Below, one piece after another: positions 2,961-49,582 of a DNA stretch of 64,000 bases (within the stretch, counting starts at the first letter, position 1; each line of letters starts with the position of its first letter). The notes beneath the pieces were generated by a model. The model was not told the DNA's origin. It was given only the letters and a program-made list of their open reading frames with translations, and did no database searches. Source of the DNA: Escherichia phage A5-4. A program made the position numbers and the translations under genes. Location of the stretch: the sequence record OP744025. The stretch is one strand, 5' to 3'.

Positions 2961-2963
2961 TTG

Positions 2964-3019
2964 TTGACAACAGCAAAGTAAGCGCGTAGTATTCATTTTA
3001 CAGGGGCGACAAGCGCCCC
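2964..3019 (+). promoter_or_regulatory. TTGACA box plus stem-loop (ggggcgacaagcgcccc) cassette
   Basis: TTGACA 2964-2969; hairpin 3003-3019; ORF starts 3029. Confidence 0.5.
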
Positions 3020-3028
3020 GCTTATCAG

Positions 3029-3310
3029 ATGAGACAAATCATGAAAATATCATTGGACGTTGCAATCAAGGCCATCGAATCCGGTTACACTCTGGTTAAG
3101 GACGATAAGGCTAAAATCGTGCATCACGTTAACAAGGAAACAGGCGAAAGCATGATCACATATAAAGCCGCCTACTTTCTCCAATCAGTAGCAGATCCGC
3201 GCCTGCAACGCCAGGTTACGGCGGCTATCGCTAAAAAATTATGTGCTTTACAGGGTACAAGTTTTAACGAGATCGCCCCGTGTTTTGATTGGTCAAGCTT
3301 GAAAAAATAG
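3029..3310 (+). CDS. hypothetical early protein
   Basis: ORF track. Confidence 0.55.
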   Translation: MRQIMKISLDVAIKAIESGYTLVKDDKAKIVHHVNKETGESMITYKAAYFLQSVADPRLQRQVTAAIAKKLCALQGTSFNEIAPCFDWSSLKK

Positions 3311-3311
3311 T

Positions 3312-3368
3312 TTGACAATACGCAGTTATCTGGTAAAGTGTACTACATAGCGCGGAAATACTTCCCGC
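3312..3368 (+). promoter_or_regulatory. TTGACA box plus stem-loop cassette
   Basis: TTGACA 3312-3317; hairpin gcggaaatacttcccgc about 3352-3368. Confidence 0.45.
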
Positions 3369-3387
3369 CATTAATGAGGATAATTTA

Positions 3388-3525
3388 ATGAAAACTTTCA
3401 ACGCAACAGCCTCGACAATTGGTTATATTATTACAGTGCAAGCCGTAGATCTGGTAGCAGCAGCAAACAAGATTAAAAGAATGATCCCGCTAGGTAGTGA
3501 ATTTTCCGTTTGGGAAGTAAAATAA
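3388..3525 (+). CDS. hypothetical small protein (45 aa)
   Basis: Hand-translated ORF ending TAA 3523-3525; aggataat RBS-like. Confidence 0.4.
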   Translation: MKTFNATASTIGYIITVQAVDLVAAANKIKRMIPLGSEFSVWEVK

Positions 3526-3528
3526 TTC

Positions 3529-3590
3529 TTGACAATAGTTTGTTACTTGATAGAATGTATTTCGTAGGGCGGGGCAATGGAGCAACGCCC
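3529..3590 (+). promoter_or_regulatory. TTGACA box plus stem-loop cassette
   Basis: TTGACA 3529-3534; hairpin gggcg...cgccc 3568-3590. Confidence 0.45.
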
Positions 3591-3608
3591 ATTAATGAGG
3601 CTAGCATC

Positions 3609-3713
3609 ATGTTAGAGAAAATTTTCACGGTTGCAGTGGTTGGCCTGGCGTTATCGGTTGGAGTGGTTGCAACTATGGCTAATATGATCCTATCTTCCCA
3701 CGGTATCGGTTAA
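3609..3713 (+). CDS. small single-TM membrane peptide (34 aa)
   Basis: Internal Met of track ORF 3510..3713, downstream of the promoter cassette; hydrophobic. Confidence 0.4.
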   Translation: MLEKIFTVAVVGLALSVGVVATMANMILSSHGIG

Positions 3714-3725
3714 GAGAGACACATC

Positions 3726-4112
3726 ATGAAAACAGAAATCATTATTGAAATCATCAACGGTTACAAAGAGGCTTTTATCTTTGCTGAATCAGCCAGGAAT
3801 CACGAAGGTGATTTTATAGATGACATGACTGATTATGATTTTTCAGATCAAGCCCAGCAACGGATCATTCGTGACGTGGCGGCTTTTTGTGACGCCAATG
3901 ATGCCGCTATCTCTGAGGCAATGAGCGACGGCGCAACAGCCAACCAGATCGGGAATGATTTACATTTTACCCGTAACGGTCACAGCGTAGGCTTTTGGGA
4001 TCGCCCTGAGATATACACTACTAACACGGCTAACCGTTTGACCAATGCCGCTAAATTTATGCCAAACGTGTCAGCCTACATTGGGAAAGATAATCTGATT
4101 TATATTGAATAA
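3726..4112 (+). CDS. hypothetical early protein
   Basis: ORF track; acidic protein. Confidence 0.55.
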   Translation: MKTEIIIEIINGYKEAFIFAESARNHEGDFIDDMTDYDFSDQAQQRIIRDVAAFCDANDAAISEAMSDGATANQIGNDLHFTRNGHSVGFWDRPEIYTTNTANRLTNAAKFMPNVSAYIGKDNLIYIE

Positions 4113-4118
4113 AAAGTA

Positions 4119-4173
4119 TTGACAAGCTGAATCAACCTGACAAGATGTATCACATAGGGGCGATAAACGCCCC
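4119..4173 (+). promoter_or_regulatory. TTGACA box plus stem-loop (ggggcgataaacgcccc) cassette
   Basis: TTGACA 4119-4124; hairpin 4157-4173. Confidence 0.5.
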
Positions 4174-35521: not shown

Positions 35522-35932
35522 CTAGTGAGTAACTTCAGTTTTTACATACCCCAAGATCAAATCATCTTGGATCTCTTTCATCGCCACAGACATTTTCAAC
35601 TGAACTTCAGCGATAGCTTCTGAATATTCAATTTCGTCTACAAAGCGTTGAAGATGTTCAGTGGATAACGAATCCATATTTTCCACGATCGCATTCTGCA
35701 TTACCTTTTCGTAATTTTCAGAAGTCATCGCTTCAACGATCTTCTGTTGATTTCGGACCTTAATGATATCTTCTTCTGTCTTATCTTCAATACCTTTCAG
35801 GAAGTCCAGCGTCATCACTGCCACTTCAAGGTTTGCGTCAATTGCCTTACCAACAACGTACTTTGCAATTTTATGAAGCAGACGCTCACGATCAGTCAGT
35901 TCTTTTTCAATTTTATCAACGGTATTAGTCAT
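35522..35932 (-). CDS. hypothetical protein
   Basis: ORF track. Confidence 0.55.
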   Translation of the reverse strand: MTNTVDKIEKELTDRERLLHKIAKYVVGKAIDANLEVAVMTLDFLKGIEDKTEEDIIKVRNQQKIVEAMTSENYEKVMQNAIVENMDSLSTEHLQRFVDEIEYSEAIAEVQLKMSVAMKEIQDDLILGYVKTEVTH

Positions 35933-36225
35933 TACAGATCTCCCAGGTCATCGTTATTGAAGTCAAGTTCTACTTTGCTCGGCAAATTCTTTGCTACCAG
36001 TTCAGTGTAGCCTCCAACGTACTCGCTGTCAATAAAAATCTGAGGAACTGTACGTGGAACATAACCAACAGCATCGCTTACCTTTTTAACCATCTCTTGC
36101 AGATTGCCAGAGTTTGCACCCACGTCAATATACTCATACTCATAACCTTTCTGATCAAGGAGGGTTTTTGCATTGTCACAGAATGGGCAGTTTACTTTAC
36201 CATAAATCACATTACTCATTATCAA
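35932..36225 (-). CDS. nrdC: glutaredoxin (NrdC-like)
   Basis: CPFC active-site motif; sits between nrdB and nrdD. Confidence 0.7.
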   Translation of the reverse strand: MIMSNVIYGKVNCPFCDNAKTLLDQKGYEYEYIDVGANSGNLQEMVKKVSDAVGYVPRTVPQIFIDSEYVGGYTELVAKNLPSKVELDFNNDDLGDL

Positions 36226-36491: not shown

Positions 36492-37589
36492 TTAAAGTTC
36501 GAAATCGAAGTCAGATGCACTTACTGAAGAGTCAACCTGACCAGACAGATATTGACCATTTTCTAGTTCCTGTGGAGTCACCTGGACGTTTTTAGTATTC
36601 AGGTGGCTATTGATCCAAGGGATCGGGTTCTTCAGTGGCTTACCGATGAAACTATCTAAACCAACTGCTCGCATACGTTGGTCAGCCATATAATCTACGT
36701 ATTGCCACAGGATCTCTTTATTCAGTCCAACCATCGAACCATCTTTGAACAGGTATTCTGCCCAATCACGTTCTTGCTGTCGTGCCTGTAAGAACAACTC
36801 ACGGGCTTCATCTTTACAATCTTCTGCGACTCGTGCAATAAGGTCACCTTCACGACCACTCTGCATTTCGTTCAGAATATACTGAGTACCCGACAAATGC
36901 AATGCTTCATCACGAGCGATCAGTTCGATAATGTTGGTGTTGCCAGTCATGATACTACGCTCACCAAATGCAAACGAACATGCAAAACTCACATAGAAGC
37001 GGATTGCTTCCAAAGCATTAATACTGTGCATACACAGATACAGTGCTCGTGCATGTGCATAACGATCGACTGGCAAGTTCAAAGCGTAACGACTGTTCAA
37101 CTGGAATAAATCGTCATACAGCTTCGTAACTGCATCTGCACGTTCCAGAATTTCTGGAGTTTTCATGATCTCATCAAGAATTGCAGAAGGATCACTAAAT
37201 ACATTTCGAATAATGTGTGTATATGAACGGCTGTGGATTGTTTCACTGAAACCCCAAGTCTCAATCCAAGTTTCCAAAGCTGGGTCAGAAACAATTGGAA
37301 GTAATACTGCATTCGGGCCACGCCCTTGAACTGAATCAAGCAATGTTTGATACTTAAGGTTACTAATGAAAATATGTTTTTCATGATCAGGTAATCCCAT
37401 AAAGTCAATTCGGTCACGGGTCACATCGATTTCTTCCGGTCGCCAGAAGAATGCCAACTGCTTTTCTGTCAGCTTTTCAAATTTGTTGTGTTTTTGCTTG
37501 TCGTAACGAGAAACGTTAACAGACTCACCAAAGAACATCGGTTGTTCCATGAAATCAAACTGGTTTTTATTAAAAGTCGTGTAGCTCAC
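36492..37589 (-). CDS. nrdB: ribonucleotide reductase class Ia beta subunit
   Basis: N-terminus [33 protein letters not shown]...[13 protein letters not shown] closely parallels E. coli/T4 NrdB. Confidence 0.9.
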
Positions 37590-37644: not shown

Positions 37645-37986
37645 TCAATAGTTATTTCTTAAAATTTCAATTCCGTATCGCTTAAAAACTTCCTTCGCTG
37701 CCATAAACTTCTGTGCTGCACTTGGATTTGAAGTATGAACAAACAGAACAGCAGGATACAGGATCGGCTTCCCAAATACAAGCTTTTCTTCTAACATTTC
37801 TAAACAACGGTAGCCTTCTTTTGAATCTTCACCAAGGTCATTGTCGAAGTGCCATTCTGTTACCCGACGATACATTTTATTGGGGTCATCAAGGAACTCG
37901 ATAAACTGGTCAGAATTTTTAAACCAGATGGCATCATCATGCCCGTAATCTTTTGGATCTCTCAAATCATCAAGCCAAATCTTCAT
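37645..37986 (-). CDS. hypothetical protein between nrdA and nrdB
   Basis: ORF track. Confidence 0.55.
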   Translation of the reverse strand: MKIWLDDLRDPKDYGHDDAIWFKNSDQFIEFLDDPNKMYRRVTEWHFDNDLGEDSKEGYRCLEMLEEKLVFGKPILYPAVLFVHTSNPSAAQKFMAAKEVFKRYGIEILRNNY

Positions 37987-38301: not shown

Positions 38302-40560
38302 TCACAGTTTACAAGCACCTGATTCGCAGCCTTCATCCTCTTCATCTTCACCATCACGAGTTTCTTGATAGTAAACAGTCTTCAGGCCAATCTTGTAAGC
38401 ATACATCAGGTCACGCAGTACAATCTTAATCGGCAGTTTGCCACCTGGATAATCCCAAGGTTTGTAGAAGGTATTGGTCGAGATCGACTGGTCAATAAAC
38501 TTCTGGATGATAGCCATCAGGTTAAGATAAGCTGTCGGTCCGTTCATATCCCATTTGTACTCGTATACCACACCTTCCTCACCAACACCAGGAACCAGCG
38601 TCGGAAGCATACCCGCAGGTGACTTCTTAAACGTCACTGGACCACGAGGAGGTTCAATGCCGTTGGTAGAGTTAGTGATCTGGCTCGATGTTTCACAAGG
38701 CATCATTGTGGACAACGTTGAGTTACGTAATCCGTGCAATGCGATATCCAGACGCAAACTTTCCCAATCTTGTTGCAATTCTGCGGTATGCAACTGATCA
38801 ACTTCTTTCTTGTAGCGATCGATAGGTAAGATGCCACGAGAATAAGATGTTTGATCGTACCACTCACAAGCACCACGCTCTTTCGCCAACTGAACAGAAG
38901 CTTTCAGCAGGTAGAACTGGAATGCTTCCGCGAGTTTATGAACTTCATTGGCAGCTTCCGGCGAACTATATTTAAGTCCACGTTTAGCCAAGTAATACGC
39001 CAAGTTAGTCCAGCCAATACCTAAAGTACGACGCAGTAACGTTTTCTCTGCTGCAAGAACAGGGTAGTTCTGATAATCAAGCAGGTTATCAAGAGCACGT
39101 ACCGTGATCATAACAGGTTCTTCTAAATCTTCAAGCTTCTCGATCTTTCCGAGGTTGATTGCTGATAAAGTACACAGTGCAACTTCACCAGAATCTTTCG
39201 GGTCCTTAATGTTATTGATCGGAGCCGTAGGTAATGCAATTTCCATACACAGGTTAGACTGCTTAATCGGAGCCACTTCAGGAAGGAACGGACTGTTGCT
39301 ATTGCAATGGTCAACGTTCTGAATATAAATACGACCCGTCTGGCTACGTTCTTGAGCTAAACGAGTGAAAGCATCAGTCGCTTCAAGCTCTTTGCGAGGA
39401 ATGGAAGGATCTGCTTCCAATTTCTCATACAGTTCTGCAAATGCTTCTTGATCCGAGAAGAAGTATTTATACAGATCACCGTTTGCTACGTTTGGATGGA
39501 AGAAACTGATCTTGCCACCTTTCTGTAAGCGAGTATAGAAGAACTTGTTGATCTGAACACCATAATCAACATGTCGTGCACGGGTGCTTTCAGTACCACG
39601 GTTGTTCTTCATTACGATCAGGTTTTCAAAGTCCCAGTGCCAAATCGGGTAGAAGTAGTTAGCTGAAGCTTTACGCAGACCACCTTGAGATGCCCAACCT
39701 AAAGATTCTTGATACATTCGAACAATGCCAACCGTACCTGCATGTTTAACTTCCCCGCCGCGAATAGGAGCGTCCTGTCCACGAATAGCACCAAAGTTCA
39801 AACCGATACCTGCTCGCTGTGCTGCATACTTACCTTGTGCTTCAACTGCTGCAAAGATCTGGTTAATATCATCACCGGACTCAATCAGTACACAAGAACT
39901 GAATTGTCGAGTCGGGGTTCGTACCCCACCCATAATCGGAGTAGGCAGAGAAACCTTCATGGTAGAAACCATATTGTACAGATCAATCACTTTTTGTAAA
40001 CGCTTCTTAGGATCTTCTTTACTCATCAAACACATTGCGATCAGCATCAGTGCTGTCTGAGGGGATTCAAAGATTTCACCTGTTACACGATCCTTGACCA
40101 AATACTTATCTTCATACTGACGCATAGCTGCGTAAGTGTAATCAAAATCACGGTCATGATCGATAACTGTATCTAAGAATTCAATCTCTTCCTTCGTATA
40201 ATCTGAAATCAGATGTTCATCGTATTTACCGCGAGCCACAGTCATAAGAATGTGAGCATACAGTGGACGAGGTTCAAAACCACCATAAGCCTGCTTACGC
40301 AGTTTAAACAGAAGCAGACGTGCTGCTGGATACTGATAGTTTGGACTTTCTACACTAATTAGGTCCGCTGCGGACTTGATCAGGGTATCGTGGATCGCGT
40401 CTGTTTCTACACCATCATACATCTGAATCTGAGATTTCATCAGGATATCAGAAGGACTTACATCATTAACCCCTTCACAAGACCAAACTACAACACGGTT
40501 TATTTTCTCAGCTTCGAATTTCTCTACAGAACCATTACGCTTACGAACAGTAATACCCAA
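38302..40560 (-). CDS. nrdA: ribonucleotide reductase class Ia alpha subunit
   Basis: 752 aa; N-terminal ATP-cone-like region; C-terminal redox cysteine pair CESGAC. Confidence 0.9.
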   Translation of the reverse strand: MGITVRKRNGSVEKFEAEKINRVVVWSCEGVNDVSPSDILMKSQIQMYDGVETDAIHDTLIKSAADLISVESPNYQYPAARLLLFKLRKQAYGGFEPRPLYAHILMTVARGKYDEHLISDYTKEEIEFLDTVIDHDRDFDYTYAAMRQYEDKYLVKDRVTGEIFESPQTALMLIAMCLMSKEDPKKRLQKVIDLYNMVSTMKVSLPTPIMGGVRTPTRQFSSCVLIESGDDINQIFAAVEAQGKYAAQRAGIGLNFGAIRGQDAPIRGGEVKHAGTVGIVRMYQESLGWASQGGLRKASANYFYPIWHWDFENLIVMKNNRGTESTRARHVDYGVQINKFFYTRLQKGGKISFFHPNVANGDLYKYFFSDQEAFAELYEKLEADPSIPRKELEATDAFTRLAQERSQTGRIYIQNVDHCNSNSPFLPEVAPIKQSNLCMEIALPTAPINNIKDPKDSGEVALCTLSAINLGKIEKLEDLEEPVMITVRALDNLLDYQNYPVLAAEKTLLRRTLGIGWTNLAYYLAKRGLKYSSPEAANEVHKLAEAFQFYLLKASVQLAKERGACEWYDQTSYSRGILPIDRYKKEVDQLHTAELQQDWESLRLDIALHGLRNSTLSTMMPCETSSQITNSTNGIEPPRGPVTFKKSPAGMLPTLVPGVGEEGVVYEYKWDMNGPTAYLNLMAIIQKFIDQSISTNTFYKPWDYPGGKLPIKIVLRDLMYAYKIGLKTVYYQETRDGEDEEDEGCESGACKL

Positions 40561-41329: not shown

Positions 41330-41395
41330 TTTAAAAGTGGGGCAACATGCCCCAGCGCCGATAATGATATAAAATTAACTAACCAATGTCAATAA

Positions 41396-42418
41396 TTATT
41401 TTGCAACATGTCCAGGAATTAACTGACGATGTTGAACAAACCCTTTCAGGTTACCACTCCAGAAGTTACCGTCGCGATCTACGTGAGTAATGCCTTCTTC
41501 CCAAGATTCTGGACACCACGGCACGTTCACCATGCTCTGCCCTTCTTCAACATCCTCACACGTTTCCTGGATCTCCTTCGCCTGATGCTCGAATGGAGAA
41601 GCGTGAACCTTTTTACCCGATACAAGCTTGGCATAAATATCCAGAGCCTTATCTTTCGTATTGTTAAGACGACGATAACTTACCTGCCCACAACAAGAGG
41701 AAGAGATAGACAAAGCTTCTTCTTCAGACAGCATAATATGATTACCATCTTCATCCTGTACACAATACCCTGCGAAAATATGTCCATCGCCCAAAGGTCC
41801 AGAGTCGAAGCAATGATCTACGTAAGGAGTATGCCACACCCCAGGCTGTAACCATTCTGGAGTAGAAGCTTTATAAGCTTCGTGCATTTTCTTAGCCAAT
41901 ACTTCGATCGTTGGATCTGCATCTGCATCAACACGTAGCCAGAAGAAGTTTTCAAATTCCGTTGCTGTAACGATAGTCTTCATCATCTGGAACGGTTCGA
42001 TCAATCGGTTAGCAATCTGCTTATGGAACCCTGCCGTCTCGAAACGTTCTGCCCATTCACAGGCATTTTCCGCAGCCTTGGCCCAAGCTTCTCGTCCGGT
42101 ACAGTACAGTTCATGACACACGCCACTTGTATCTTCCACCCAATCATACCATACTTTACCATCATGTTCTGTTCCTTTATCCTGCATACCAGGTTGGTTA
42201 GCACCAAATCGAACAGGCATTGCCATATTTTCACGGATCAGTTTAACCATTGTCTTGATCGGCACTGCACGAGAAGACATTGCATTTCGGCTAAACAGTC
42301 GGTGCGTCATAAGTTCTGAGTGAATGAATCGAGGATAGGTCAATTCAAACGTGGTGATACGAGCTTTACTACGATAGCCAACAGAATCTGCAATAATACG
42401 GGCTTCAATCATGGACAT
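41396..42418 (-). CDS. ThyX-like protein (flavin-dependent thymidylate synthase family) with atypical motif
   Basis: ELMTHRLFSRNAMSSRAVP resembles the ThyX RHR-x7-S signature but the first Arg is Thr; 340 aa is longer than typical ThyX. Confidence 0.5.
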   Translation of the reverse strand: MSMIEARIIADSVGYRSKARITTFELTYPRFIHSELMTHRLFSRNAMSSRAVPIKTMVKLIRENMAMPVRFGANQPGMQDKGTEHDGKVWYDWVEDTSGVCHELYCTGREAWAKAAENACEWAERFETAGFHKQIANRLIEPFQMMKTIVTATEFENFFWLRVDADADPTIEVLAKKMHEAYKASTPEWLQPGVWHTPYVDHCFDSGPLGDGHIFAGYCVQDEDGNHIMLSEEEALSISSSCCGQVSYRRLNNTKDKALDIYAKLVSGKKVHASPFEHQAKEIQETCEDVEEGQSMVNVPWCPESWEEGITHVDRDGNFWSGNLKGFVQHRQLIPGHVAK

Positions 42419-42434
42419 TCAAATCTCCTCTCTA

Positions 42435-42641
42435 TTAATTTAAATCTTCAACAAATTGTGGCAAGTAATCTTCAATTGGGCTACTCAAATCATTTTCTCT
42501 TACAATTTCCAAGTTAGCAAGTCTTTTCTTTGCCAAGTAAGAAATAAATTCCTTAGTATCTACCCTGTGTCCTTCTAGTGCCAACTTACCGTCAATATAA
42601 ACACCTTCCCAATCTTCACCTTCGAAAAATACTATTTTCAT
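42435..42641 (-). CDS. hypothetical protein
   Basis: ORF track. Confidence 0.5.
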   Translation of the reverse strand: MKIVFFEGEDWEGVYIDGKLALEGHRVDTKEFISYLAKKRLANLEIVRENDLSSPIEDYLPQFVEDLN

Positions 42642-42823
42642 TTTATTTTCCTGATTTTGTAATCAACACGAACATCATACATAACGTGAAGATACATGTC
42701 AAACATTTCTTTGCACATATCGCTTTTTACTTTGAAGGAAGCCAAAAGGCTTCCATTTTCTTTAGAAAGGATCTCTACATAATCCCCTTCCCTAACTACC
42801 CACCTTCCTTTACCACATCTCAA
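42638..42823 (-). CDS. hypothetical protein
   Basis: ORF track. Confidence 0.45.
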   Translation of the reverse strand: MRCGKGRWVVREGDYVEILSKENGSLLASFKVKSDMCKEMFDMYLHVMYDVRVDYKIRKIK

Positions 42824-43425
42824 GATTCTCTCTCCAAAATAAATTCAGCAATCGATGCCCAATCGCTAGTTACCAAGTCGTAACATCCGATCTCTTCTTC
42901 ATCTTGACTGAAGGGTGTATCATACTTGATTTTTACTACCTTGTCACTAAATTGATTCAAAAATTTATTACGATCATCAATGATGTAATCACCCGAAACT
43001 CCAGCCTTGTACTTTGTAGCATAAAAACCACACCCGTCTGTTCCATTTTCAAGGTCCAGGTTAGGGAAGTGTCGCTTCAAGAAACGAACCTTACTGCTAA
43101 AATGACCTTTCTTGCAATAAGAAACAAACCGAATAGGGAATCCTGCGGCATGTAACTTGTTGATTGCATCTACCGCTCCCGCAATAGGGAACATCTTATC
43201 ATACAAGAAAGGATCTTCCCAATAATCATACGGAGGGATAGCCTTCTTACAGCGATCAGGGAAGTACCGAGAAAGATTGTAATCAAAATACCCATTCTCG
43301 CTAATGTCCTTTTCCATAAGGTCAGAATCAGCCTCCATATTATAGATGCTTTCCATCCAGTGCAACCAAGGCCATCCAGAATCAACGATAGTTAAGTCAA
43401 CATCCACAATGATCGCTTTTTTCAT
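42820..43425 (-). CDS. HAD-superfamily hydrolase (nucleotidase-like)
   Basis: N-terminal IIVDVDLTIVD (DxDxT) motif. Confidence 0.55.
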   Translation of the reverse strand: MKKAIIVDVDLTIVDSGWPWLHWMESIYNMEADSDLMEKDISENGYFDYNLSRYFPDRCKKAIPPYDYWEDPFLYDKMFPIAGAVDAINKLHAAGFPIRFVSYCKKGHFSSKVRFLKRHFPNLDLENGTDGCGFYATKYKAGVSGDYIIDDRNKFLNQFSDKVVKIKYDTPFSQDEEEIGCYDLVTSDWASIAEFILERES

Positions 43426-44064
43426 TTACTCTTTCCCCTCTGAGAGTTTGATAATTAATTTTGCAGTTTCAGTTAGCTTACCATTAACGTTTTCAACGTC
43501 GAAATCTCTAGGTCGTGCACTTTCAGGGAAATTCTCAGAGTAAATATAATTACGAGAATCACCTTCAAAAGTTAATTTATTACCTGTTCGTGGATCAGTA
43601 CGATGTAAACGGATCAGGGTGTAATCACCATTTACCGCTTTAACTACCGGAACACTTTCATGAATAAATCCACCATCAGAGCTAATAAATGTACAAGTAT
43701 AACCATCCATTTCCATACTTTTCGCAATATCTTTAACACGCTTGGCAAGAGCAACACCGAAGTATTCTTCCCCGAAGAGAGGCTTCGCAACATTCTCCGA
43801 GATGTGGATCAGCCAGTTACGTGGGGACACTTGTTTACCTGCAACATTAAAATATGGTTGAGGTACTTCTTTATAATCACGGTGGTAAAGTGCATCCCAC
43901 AGTTCACGATTAATACCTGCAATACGAATAGCTAGATCGATAAGGGAACCTTTAAACTCCACATGAATACCCACGTTGTTGCCTACGGTAACTAACTGAG
44001 CGATCTCACCAGCAAGAGCATCTTTACCAGAAAAAGCAGGACCATTCAAATTGATAAATTTCAT
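43426..44064 (-). CDS. deoxynucleoside monophosphate kinase-like (T4 gp1-type)
   Basis: P-loop-like GPAFSGKD resembles the T4 Dnk G..RSGKD motif. Confidence 0.5.
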   Translation of the reverse strand: MKFINLNGPAFSGKDALAGEIAQLVTVGNNVGIHVEFKGSLIDLAIRIAGINRELWDALYHRDYKEVPQPYFNVAGKQVSPRNWLIHISENVAKPLFGEEYFGVALAKRVKDIAKSMEMDGYTCTFISSDGGFIHESVPVVKAVNGDYTLIRLHRTDPRTGNKLTFEGDSRNYIYSENFPESARPRDFDVENVNGKLTETAKLIIKLSEGKE

Positions 44065-47476: not shown

Positions 47477-48585
47477 TAAATACCTACCCGTTTTAAAGTT
47501 GAGGCTAATGTTGTCTTATCATTTTCTGTACGCTTCATATAAACACACTGGAAAATGACAGAAGCCCACTGACCCGCCGAAAACTTACGATGATTCCCTA
47601 AGTGGTCTGTATATTCAACACCCTCAGGAAACCACTTCTTATACTGATCAATAATAGCTAACCACATACTCTTCTCGTCTGCACAAGGGGAGATGACCTG
47701 GAAAGCCGATGTTTCACCAAAGCGAAGACCCTCGAAGGTTTGATATGGTTTAACGTTATCCGCTGCATCACCAAATAGCATTTGGTAACCGAAGAATTTC
47801 TTACCCCAACCTTTTACCTTACCAGACTCCATCCAGATCTCACCCATAGAATCATCGATCAACCAAAGTTCAGGATGTTTCCATGTACGCTCTGTTGAGT
47901 CACGCATTGTGTTAAACAACAAAGAAGGAACCTGGACCTGATCCTTATCGAATGATGCCACAATATGACTAAACTTTCCAGTCTTCCGATAATTTAAATA
48001 TCCTTTATATCCAAGGATCGATAAATAATCATCTGCCTCAATACCATCCACAATGATCGCACCATACTTCTGCTGAACATATCGACGAGTCTCCCCAAGC
48101 AACAAAGGACGTAAAGTATCTTCACGGTTACCCTTATAGACCTCGGGGGTCGGGAGTGCAAGACGGAAGTTACCACTCCCACCTAAAACACCAAGCCCGT
48201 TTGCTGATCCTACGTGCTCAAGAATAGCATTGATCTTAATCTTCAATAAGTGAAGACAGTTCTCAACTGGTTCTGGAGTTTGCTTTTCAATGATCTCGAA
48301 ATCATCACGAGTCCACGGAGTAAATTCTTTTCCGCGAGCAACCGCTTTTGCTTCCATATTAATGTTTTGGTCTTTTAACCACCCACCAACAACATTCTTT
48401 TGGCGACCCCAGAACTCTGTTCGATTTTTAAACTCTTTCTCTCGGCCTGTTTCTTTGTGCCGAGCAATGATCGTTCGCTTCTCTGCACCTGCCGCAGCCA
48501 CGTATGCTGTCTGGTCAAGATCCAGAGCTACTACAACATTATCTTCTACAATGCCGGACCAATCTTTTACTTTAGGATATCCCAT
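47476..48585 (-). CDS. rnh: RNase H / flap endonuclease (T4 rnh-like 5'-3' exonuclease)
   Basis: VVALDLDQTAYVAAA and GIEADDYLSIL parallel T4 RNase H ICLIDFSQIALSTAL and YEADDHIAVL. Confidence 0.55.
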   Translation of the reverse strand: MGYPKVKDWSGIVEDNVVVALDLDQTAYVAAAGAEKRTIIARHKETGREKEFKNRTEFWGRQKNVVGGWLKDQNINMEAKAVARGKEFTPWTRDDFEIIEKQTPEPVENCLHLLKIKINAILEHVGSANGLGVLGGSGNFRLALPTPEVYKGNREDTLRPLLLGETRRYVQQKYGAIIVDGIEADDYLSILGYKGYLNYRKTGKFSHIVASFDKDQVQVPSLLFNTMRDSTERTWKHPELWLIDDSMGEIWMESGKVKGWGKKFFGYQMLFGDAADNVKPYQTFEGLRFGETSAFQVISPCADEKSMWLAIIDQYKKWFPEGVEYTDHLGNHRKFSAGQWASVIFQCVYMKRTENDKTTLASTLKRVGI

Positions 48586-49079
48586 TATAACTCCTTACCG
48601 TGATTTTCATGAAAGCCGTATTTAATCTCTGCTGCTTTTCTTGCAGCAATTGCATCCTCTTTATCTTCGAAGCGTCCTAGGTATACTCTAACACGATTTA
48701 CAGTTATAGATGCAAGCCATTTTTGCTCTTTTTCCCTCCACATGACCCCTGTGTATCCACTTTTATTACGAGAACTCTTCTTGTTGTTTCTCATATTGTC
48801 TATCTGAGATACCATACGAAGATTACTCATCCTGTTATCCCAAGGTACGTGGTTTATATGGTCAATTACCTTATTGTCCGGTATTTCTCCATTGTTAATT
48901 TCCCACGCTACACGATGACCGAGATGAAGAACGCCATCTAACCATATGTGTATATAACCCCTTTTCTTATTTCTTTTTCCTGCAACGTCACCAGGATAAA
49001 TACCATTATGTCTTCTAACTTTCCAGTACATAACCCCAGTTTCTTGATCGTAAATAAGATAATCATGCCAATTTACCAT
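48585..49079 (-). CDS. HNH homing endonuclease with AP2 DNA-binding domain
   Basis: HNH motif HLGHRVAWE...IDHINHVPWDNRMSNLR; AP2-like GYTGVMWREKEQKWLASITVNRVRVYLGRFEDKEDA. Confidence 0.7.
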   Translation of the reverse strand: MVNWHDYLIYDQETGVMYWKVRRHNGIYPGDVAGKRNKKRGYIHIWLDGVLHLGHRVAWEINNGEIPDNKVIDHINHVPWDNRMSNLRMVSQIDNMRNNKKSSRNKSGYTGVMWREKEQKWLASITVNRVRVYLGRFEDKEDAIAARKAAEIKYGFHENHGKEL

Positions 49080-49582
49080 CAGAAAGCCTCGCCGTAATCT
49101 TCGTCTTCTTTAACTTCTTTTACTGGTCGCTTGAATTTGAAATCTTTACCCATATATTCATACAAATAATCAATATTCAAAGACCATTCTTGCTTACTTC
49201 TTTGTCGCCACAATGCCGCAGCTTGCATAATGTATTCTTCAGCAGCCTTCTTGTCAACACCGTTAACTTTCATAAAGTGTCGTATTGCACGAGCCATGTT
49301 ACCAGTTGCTTGAGCACGACCGATGTGTTTTACTTCATGGCAAGGAGGGCATAAAGCAATCACGCCTCGTAACACAACTTCACTATTAACAAAGTCCCAC
49401 ACTTCGTGGGCCTCTACCGGATGCTTACGACCGTTCCCGCCTTTTCCACCACAAACTTCACAAGTGTAGTTGGCCTCTTGATAACATTTACGACGAACTT
49501 TGTCCCATCCCGCTTGGGTAAGGTAAGATCGAAGGTTGTTGTCCCAAGCTGTGCTTGGGATTAATTCGATAGTTAATTTCAT
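49079..49582 (-). CDS. zinc-binding HNH-like nuclease (tentative)
   Basis: Cys/His pattern CEVCGGKG...HPVEAHEVW...CPPCHEVKH. Confidence 0.35.
   Translation of the reverse strand: MKLTIELIPSTAWDNNLRSYLTQAGWDKVRRKCYQEANYTCEVCGGKGGNGRKHPVEAHEVWDFVNSEVVLRGVIALCPPCHEVKHIGRAQATGNMARAIRHFMKVNGVDKKAAEEYIMQAAALWRQRSKQEWSLNIDYLYEYMGKDFKFKRPVKEVKEDEDYGEAF

Follow-up and report, generated by a model that had tools for sequence, protein, structure and literature searches.

A putative flavin-dependent thymidylate synthase with a circular-permutation-like chain order and a variant signature in Escherichia phage A5-4 and its relatives

Flavin-dependent thymidylate synthases (FDTS or ThyX) are validated antibacterial targets and serve as a model of how flavin mediates the transfer of a methylene group, and the first arginine of the RHR motif and a tyrosine lid are regarded as core parts of their active site. 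Described members of this family (PF02511, TIGR02170) include TM0449 of Thermotoga maritima (Tm; PDB 1KQ4/1O26), A674R of PBCV-1 (4FZB), and the enzymes of Helicobacter pylori (Hp; 3AH5) and Mycobacterium tuberculosis (Mtb; 2AF6). In general, canonical ThyX proteins comprise about 190–250 amino acids (aa) in a colinear order of N-terminal helices with an HxxPFEH loop, a strand, the RHR helix, and C-terminal helices. Here we analyze an open reading frame (ORF) in a stretch of 64,000 nucleotides from Escherichia phage A5-4 (sequence record OP744025; the whole stretch is referred to as the window), which lies at 41396..42418 on the minus strand, starts with ATG, and encodes a product of 340 aa. 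Judged from its sequence, this product is most likely a flavin-dependent thymidylate synthase with a rearranged chain that makes deoxythymidine monophosphate (dTMP) from deoxyuridine monophosphate (dUMP) for phage DNA replication, and we place the probability of this reading at roughly 0.7. While the annotation "thymidylate synthase" is already known for such genes, a ThyX clade that combines a rearranged (circular-permutation-like) chain with a variant signature would be new, and the literature searched contained no description of a permuted ThyX or of a rearranged topology.

The ligand contacts of ThyX are known from the M. tuberculosis and H. pylori enzymes, in which the RHR motif binds the phosphates and ribityl of flavin adenine dinucleotide (FAD) and the first arginine additionally forms hydrogen bonds with the isoalloxazine and dUMP (PMC6514825). 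Ser71 and Arg190 from a second subunit contact the same flavin parts (phosphates/ribityl), dUMP is held by R199 and by three residues from a third subunit (R87, S105, and R107), and Tyr108 acts as a lid above C5/N5 (PMC6514825). A further comparison is offered by PolB, the polyoxin ThyX paralogue that methylates uridine monophosphate (UMP) or dUMP at C5 (PDB 4P5A); it appears colinear, as nearly all of its sequence is covered when a colinear ThyX is used as the query, and it belongs to an antibiotic gene cluster, whereas the phage protein lies in a block for deoxynucleoside triphosphate (dNTP) synthesis and is the only thymidylate synthase candidate of its genome. ThyA-type synthases and their phage derivatives, the dUMP and dCMP hydroxymethylases, would fill the same role in a phage, namely C1 transfer to C5 of a pyrimidine deoxynucleoside monophosphate (dNMP), but their fold and mechanism are unrelated to those of the phage protein. 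The ThyA family is also the known source of phage base-modifying enzymes. The combination that characterizes base-modifying C5 transferases (a ThyA fold, a partner kinase, glycosyl- or aminoacyl-transferases, and modified DNA) does not describe the present case, as no ThyA-like sequence was found in the window or in the genome of the near-identical phage A73, and relatives of the phage are highly restriction-sensitive.

By Pfam score and three-dimensional fold, the A5-4 protein belongs to the ThyX/Thy1 superfamily, in which it is a divergent member and not a standard ThyX. The native sequence matches PF02511 (Thy1) with 42.1 bits, above the gathering cut-off of 24.8, with coverage limited to profile positions 60–191 of 191; the matches to both PF02511 and TIGR02170 in native order fall within residues 22–188 and run from profile position 60 to the end. 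Moreover, phrog_85 ("thymidylate synthase") is matched with E=3e-103. The sequence E35-L-M-T38-H39-R40-L-F-S-R-N-A-M-S48-S49-R50-A51, i.e., THR-x7-SSR, aligns without gaps to the T. maritima signature R78-H79-R80-x7-S88-G89-R90-Y91 by four independent methods (PF02511, TIGR02170, hhalign, and phmmer/hmmsearch against PDB chains), for which the TM0449 sequence was checked against PDB 1KQ4 and the canonical profile was built from 20 Thermotogota ThyX sequences. Because four independent methods give this gapless alignment, we take the THR-x7-S match as homology and not chance: the strict RHR-x7-S signature is replaced by THR-x7-S with its spacing kept. The initial annotation, made from the sequence alone, had recognized this motif in its ThyX context, the threonine in place of the first arginine, and a possible divergent thymidylate synthase; all of this stands, but the cause of the divergence and of the length, namely a relocated segment, an insertion, and a tail, had been missed.

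The relocated segment can be noticed by eye, since phage residues 244–278 (GQVSYRR...KVHASPFEH) resemble residues 26–59 of the T. maritima enzyme (AARVSF...GHETPFEH). When a profile of 129 family sequences was compared with canonical ThyX by hhalign, two significant but non-colinear matches were obtained, one of residues 13–214 with Tm 48–214 (82% probability) and one of residues 209–338 with Tm 6–141 (90% probability); the confident core of the latter pairs 237–281 with Tm 20–62 (94.9% probability, E=4.5e-8). The protein was then re-ordered in silico by setting aa 196–278 or 236–278 in front of aa 20–195. The Pfam match rose from 42.1 to 59.4–60.4 bits and became a single stretch over profile positions 17–191, and the TIGR02170 score increased from 43.2 to 61.3 bits. 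With phmmer, the re-ordered construct matched T. maritima ThyX structures in the PDB (E=7e-4), and the alignment crosses the artificial junction, at which KVHASPFEH on the phage side is followed by RITTFELTYPRFIHSELMTHR. The re-ordered family profile matched 14 ThyX-family PDB sequences (best E=8e-6), and its hhalign comparison with the canonical ThyX profile improved from 7.7% probability and E=0.0045 in native order to 94.2% and E=1e-7, colinear over 186 columns. A control graft of the tail (279–340) in place of this segment gave 39.6 bits with Pfam, i.e., no gain. Thus, the segment with the HxxPFEH loop, equivalent to Tm 20–59, is now placed by these alignments behind the core, at 237–281, whereas the HxxPFEH helix pair stands before the core in all solved ThyX proteins. 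This rearrangement would also explain why neither the single native sequence nor the native family profile found any ThyX in the PDB sequence search, which we attribute to chain order and not to missing homology. A fold search of BFVD returned only models of other phage "thymidylate synthases".

We describe the rearrangement as circular-permutation-like, as the comparisons do not distinguish a clean circular permutation from a transposed segment. No counterpart of canonical beta1/beta2 was detected: with neither aa 1–14 nor aa 196–235 does the match to Pfam or TIGR02170 reach profile positions 1–16, and grafting the strand of aa 1–19 onto the re-ordered construct likewise adds no Pfam score. 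We also considered whether a tandem duplication could have left the tail, which contains VQHRQ, as the vestige of a second RHR helix. This idea was dropped as unsupported, as hhalign gives only E=0.2–0.5 whether the tail is compared with canonical ThyX or, within the same protein, with the N-terminus or the core, and its graft brings no Pfam gain.

Along the chain, the protein opens with a beta-strand within aa 1–19 (42362..42418, on the minus strand like all elements of this gene), which contains IIADS with a near-invariant S12 and is modelled as a strand at 5–14 by AlphaFold2 (AF2). The ThyX core follows at aa 20–195 (41834..42361) and corresponds to T. maritima residues ~60–205 in the Pfam, hhalign, and phmmer alignments. 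Within it, after the S48–R50 loop, lies a family-specific insertion of about 45 aa (aa 64–107, 42098..42229) that stands opposite a gap in canonical ThyX in hhalign. The insertion opens with the highly conserved loop MPVRFGANQPGMQDKG, in which P68, G77, and M78 are invariant or nearly so, and residues 64–88 are modelled without regular secondary structure at a predicted local distance difference test (pLDDT) value of ~60. A connector with three beta-strands and the invariant H196 and P198 (WHTPYV) spans aa 196–236 (41711..41833), as seen from the family alignment and the AF2 model, and has no detectable counterpart in canonical ThyX. The relocated canonical N-terminal segment (aa 237–281, 41576..41710; Tm 20–62) comes next, with QVS247Y equivalent to RVS30F and H272-A-S274-P-F-E277-H278 to H53-E-T55-P-F-E58-H59. 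The chain ends with a family-specific tail of about 60 aa (aa 282–340, 41399..41575), defined from the family alignment, with Q329 and the invariant R331, for which no homology to ThyX or to the N-terminus of the same chain could be detected. The unusual length noticed at the outset is real (340 aa, compared with 220 aa for TM0449 and 191–245 residues for solved ThyX chains), and the roughly 100 extra residues are due to the added elements, i.e., insertion, connector, and tail.

In the alignment with T. maritima ThyX, residues T38, H39, R40, S43, N45, A46, S48, R50, and A51 correspond to Tm R78, H79, R80, S83, N85, E86, S88, R90, and Y91, and residues R138, T153, N157, L161, R162, and D166 to Tm R147, R165, N169, L173, R174, and H178; by its numbering offset, R30 would be the equivalent of Hp R66 and Mtb R87. 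Five of the six dUMP ligands (Mtb R87, R95, S105, R107, and R199, and Tm R147) are kept by alignment, as R30, S48, R50, R162, and R138, and are invariant or nearly so in the family; the sixth, equivalent to R95/R78, is T38. Among the flavin ligands (the RHR motif, Mtb S71/Tm T55, Mtb R190/Tm R165, and Tm H53 and E58), H39, R40, S274, H272, and E277 are aligned and kept, as is H278, while R78 and R165 are changed to T38 and T153. The tyrosine lid (Tm Y91, Mtb Y108) is lost as well, with A51 in its place in 129 of 129 members. Comparison with ThyX, which had been proposed as a check of the FAD and dUMP ligands, therefore recovers most of the dUMP set and part of the flavin set but finds R78, R165, and Y91 replaced. 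The changes relative to canonical ThyX across the phage family are R78→T, R165→T, Y91→A, E86→A/S, N163→T/S, and H178→D/A. Because both lost arginines contact the phosphate/ribityl region of the flavin, these replacements suggest a remodelled cofactor site. R331, H196, K133, and the conserved 64–88 loop are candidates to compensate for the lost contacts, and the 64–107 insertion is a candidate substitute for the missing Tyr91 lid.

The family is large and widely distributed. About 5400 protein matches were found in a collection clustered at 90% identity, of which the best 120 listed are 315–356 aa long and, where they lie on long contigs, come mostly from contigs of ~130–155 kb. A profile search of representatives at 50% identity gave 5419 matches at E≤1e-3, and 3015 when the limit was set at E≤1e-30. 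Among the phage records, 1035 were matched, and in 1007 of these the match covers at least 80% of the length. Carriers include Vequintavirinae (rV5-like), Vibrio phage ICP1, Pseudomonas PAK_P1/KPP10-like phages, Pakpunavirus, N4-like podophages, phiCbK-like phages, and Flavobacterium phages. The WonAB defence is reported to be active against ICP1 and all BASEL Vequintavirinae (PMC12137116), and both of these groups carry the rearranged ThyX, which is probably a coincidence.

Conservation was counted in 129 diverse members that are 33–58% identical to the A5-4 protein. Residues H39, R50, A51, M78, R162, H196, P198, S247, H272, and R331 are invariant, and R30, E35, S48, K133, Q134, R138, E141, T153, N157, L161, S274, E277, H278, and Q329 (the last in 124/129) nearly so, while R40 is present in 105/129. 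The threonine at position 38 is not peculiar to A5-4, as it occurs in 125 members, with arginine in two and lysine in two, and is invariant in 30 close relatives. The four exceptions, P0336 and P0349 (RHR) and P0262 and P0310 (KHS/KHR), keep Arg/Lys at this position yet retain T153, A51, and R331; as natural "revertants", they are useful for probing the role of the first RHR arginine.

Members of 520–680 aa might be taken for fusions with another enzyme, but this was rejected, since their extra length consists of inteins. Among the 150 best family representatives, about 18 are of this kind, with Intein_splicing plus HNH or with LAGLIDADG endonucleases, and they include P0252, P0256, P0257, P0263, P0286, P0317, P0364, and P0367. 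At least five or six distinct intein points are used (between H33 and S34, R40 and L41, F42 and S43, at about S48, just after R162, and between H272 and residue 273), and all of them adjoin motif residues, the relocated motif included. Inteins are expected at functionally constrained sites of important enzymes, and their placement here suggests that these positions are conserved functional sites.

To see whether the phage has another route to dTMP, the window and the complete A73 genome were searched by tblastn for ThyA, FolA, and Dut of E. coli, Cd of T4, and ThyX of T. maritima. Nothing was found (best E=0.59), with the limits that only the TM0449 query was checked against a database and that very divergent versions could escape tblastn. 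Because ThyA, canonical ThyX, dihydrofolate reductase (DHFR), dUTPase, and dCMP deaminase were not detected in this search, the ThyX-like gene is the only thymidylate synthase candidate of the genome. ThyX chemistry releases tetrahydrofolate (H4folate), with which the lack of a detected DHFR is consistent. The Septuagintavirus paper lists the gene simply as a thymidylate synthase (PMC11370258).

If the protein works as a thymidylate synthase, its subunits would assemble as in canonical ThyX, a homotetramer in which three subunits share each active site, with several of them jointly supplying the nucleotide and flavin ligands: H39/R40 and R162 would come from subunit A, S274 and probably H272/E277 from subunit B, and R30/S48/R50 from subunit C. 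The methylene group would pass from CH2-H4folate to N5 of the reduced flavin and then to C5 of dUMP, with release of H4folate and no need for DHFR. The contacts expected to be lost are those of R78→T38 with the flavin ring, the phosphates, and dUMP, those of R165→T153 with the flavin phosphate/ribityl, and the lid of Y91→A51; more speculatively, H196, P198, R331, K133, and the M78 loop of the 64–107 insertion presumably make them good. The product dTMP would feed the adjacent dNMP kinase, and the block of ribonucleotide reductase (RNR), glutaredoxin, deoxynucleotidase, and kinase genes would form a dNTP-supply module of the phage.

Several points weigh against this assignment. The TIGR02170 score of 43.2 bits lies below the thyX equivalog cut-off of 87.9, as does the 61.3 bits reached even after re-ordering, and in native order the rearranged family has no PDB relative by sequence. 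AF2 confidence over the relocated segment is low (pLDDT 49–68), and its position at the active site is one that we infer. Three residues with defined canonical roles, the first RHR arginine, Arg165, and the tyrosine lid, are lost family-wide. Moreover, the literature searched held no biochemical or structural study of any family member and only repeated the annotation, and it is for related genera, not for A5-4 itself, that canonical DNA is indicated.

The replaced residues are clustered around the flavin and the C5 reaction centre. Together with the new invariant residues H196, P198, M78, and R331 and the score below the equivalog cut-off, this would fit a ThyX-fold enzyme with altered chemistry or substrate, which might hydroxymethylate dUMP at C5, carry out another C5 transfer, methylate a different nucleotide (compare PolB on UMP), or use another flavin or reductant, and which would feed DNA modification or a nucleotide-derived product. 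We consider this unlikely, since little or no variation is seen at the uracil ligand R162 (R174 in T. maritima) or at the phosphate ligands R30, S48, R50, and R138, no further dTMP route of the phage's own was detected, and the few members that retain RHR argue for the same basic reaction. Indirect but consistent evidence from relatives with the same gene also speaks against modified thymine: Vequintavirinae are "exceptionally susceptible" to restriction-modification systems (PMC8594841) and do not figure among the targets of GrwAB, a modification-dependent nuclease system (PMC12137116), and rV5 DNA is cut by XbaI (PMC3606486). The suggestion in the initial annotation that the enzyme had been repurposed for a non-canonical pyrimidine is thus not supported, given the kept ligands, the sole candidate, and the restriction-sensitive relatives, and has become less probable without being refuted. 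To our knowledge, no thymine modification is known in the well-studied carriers (ICP1, N4-like, and PAK_P1-like phages), which also speaks against altered chemistry. A related view, which we regard as quite improbable, is that, among flavin-dependent C5 transferases, the family forms a branch with a mechanism of its own, with a different handling of the flavin or methylene donor (e.g., flavin mononucleotide instead of FAD, or another reductant) or with a product other than dTMP (e.g., 5-hydroxymethyl-dUMP) in some lineages; such a branch would be marked by the rearranged topology, the lost R78, R165, and tyrosine lid, and the newly invariant H196, P198, M78 loop, and R331.

It is highly improbable that the protein is an ordinary colinear ThyX core with an unrelated C-terminal domain, in which the canonical N-terminal segment was simply lost and the apparent relocation is a chance similarity. 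In its favour, the C-terminal fragment alone has no Pfam match and AF2 confidence is low over 241–280, but re-ordering brings a large gain that is reproduced by four methods (18–20 bits with Pfam as well as with TIGR02170, an hhalign E-value that falls from 4.5e-3 to 1e-7, and new PDB matches) with an alignment across the junction, and the control graft brings none. Furthermore, the C-terminal region alone matches Tm 20–62 at the probability and E-value given above, S247, H272, S274, E277, and H278 are invariant or nearly so in the 129 members, and inteins target the site behind H272. Least probable, to a degree that we find it hard to credit, is a catalytically dead ThyX relic kept for another role, e.g., to bind nucleotides, to regulate, or to scaffold a complex for dNTP synthesis. 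A number of residues that serve catalysis or ligand contact in canonical ThyX are indeed lost and the E. coli host already has ThyA; against this stand the very strong conservation of ligand-equivalent positions across thousands of clusters, with identities as low as 33%, the repeated intein invasion at these motifs, and the fact that many large lytic phages retain the gene as their one candidate for a thymidylate synthase.

The family has a wider interest, as it is a very large natural group without the first RHR arginine and the tyrosine lid and with a different chain order. It counts no fewer than 3000 clusters when grouped at 50% identity, and 1007 phage records are matched at full length. 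If its members are active thymidylate synthases, they would reveal which ThyX features are really essential and would offer a ready natural test of the roles proposed for R78, R165, and Y91. One published ThyX survey allowed two motif mismatches, and filters stricter than this would lose the rearranged family. Because it is also missed by equivalog-level models and its architecture is obscured by partial domain matches, phage and virome inventories of thymidylate synthases may be incomplete.

The window comes from a Septuagintavirus-type phage (Vequintavirinae) near Escherichia phages A73 and W70. The coding sequence at 41396..42418 (minus strand) is the orthologue of A73_203, which, like its W70 counterpart, is labelled "putative thymidylate synthase", and the DNA of the gene is 99.9% identical. 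The regions flanking it are 91–98% identical to A73, and the window as a whole is a mosaic in which other stretches are 84–96% identical or do not align; divergent or non-aligning stretches lie at 48567–49579, 2961–4166, and 8724–11710, one of them near the homing-endonuclease gene A73_191.

An AGGAG ribosome-binding site can be read directly from the sequence at 42425..42429 (minus strand), 6 nt upstream of the ATG. A sigma-70-like promoter match (TTGACA-17-TATGAT, 11/12; consensus match only) lies at 42674..42702 on the same strand, upstream of a 68-aa ORF (42435–42641) and the ThyX-like gene. A second sigma-70-like match (11/12) at 41364–41392 (minus strand) begins 4 nt past the ThyX stop and faces a 164-aa ORF and the RNR genes; the GC-rich hairpin that follows at 41338–41354 does not satisfy a terminator scan and is not claimed as a terminator.

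The neighbours first proposed, a dNMP kinase, a nucleotidase of the haloacid dehalogenase (HAD) superfamily, and RNR, are borne out by profile matches and by the annotation of A73. An NT5C-type 5'(3')-deoxyribonucleotidase of the HAD superfamily (42820–43425, PF06941, E=2e-8) and the dNMP kinase (43426–44064, phrog_139, E=1e-32) lie on the minus strand directly upstream of the ThyX-like gene, adjacent to each other and with formally opposing activities, and two tiny conserved ORFs (phrog_4903 and phrog_19048) are situated between this pair and the ThyX-like gene. A glutaredoxin (35932–36225) is identified by a profile match, and the class Ia RNR alpha (38302–40560) and beta (36492–37589) genes by the A73 annotation, which places a class III RNR further along. 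Between the alpha and beta genes, at 37645–37986 (minus strand), is a gene whose product of 113 aa matches the cREC_REC domain (PF20274, "cyclic-phosphate processing receiver") with E=5e-18. Finally, the GC skew of the window switches sign near 10 kb and 59–60 kb, and the genes examined in between (~36–48 kb) are all on the minus strand.

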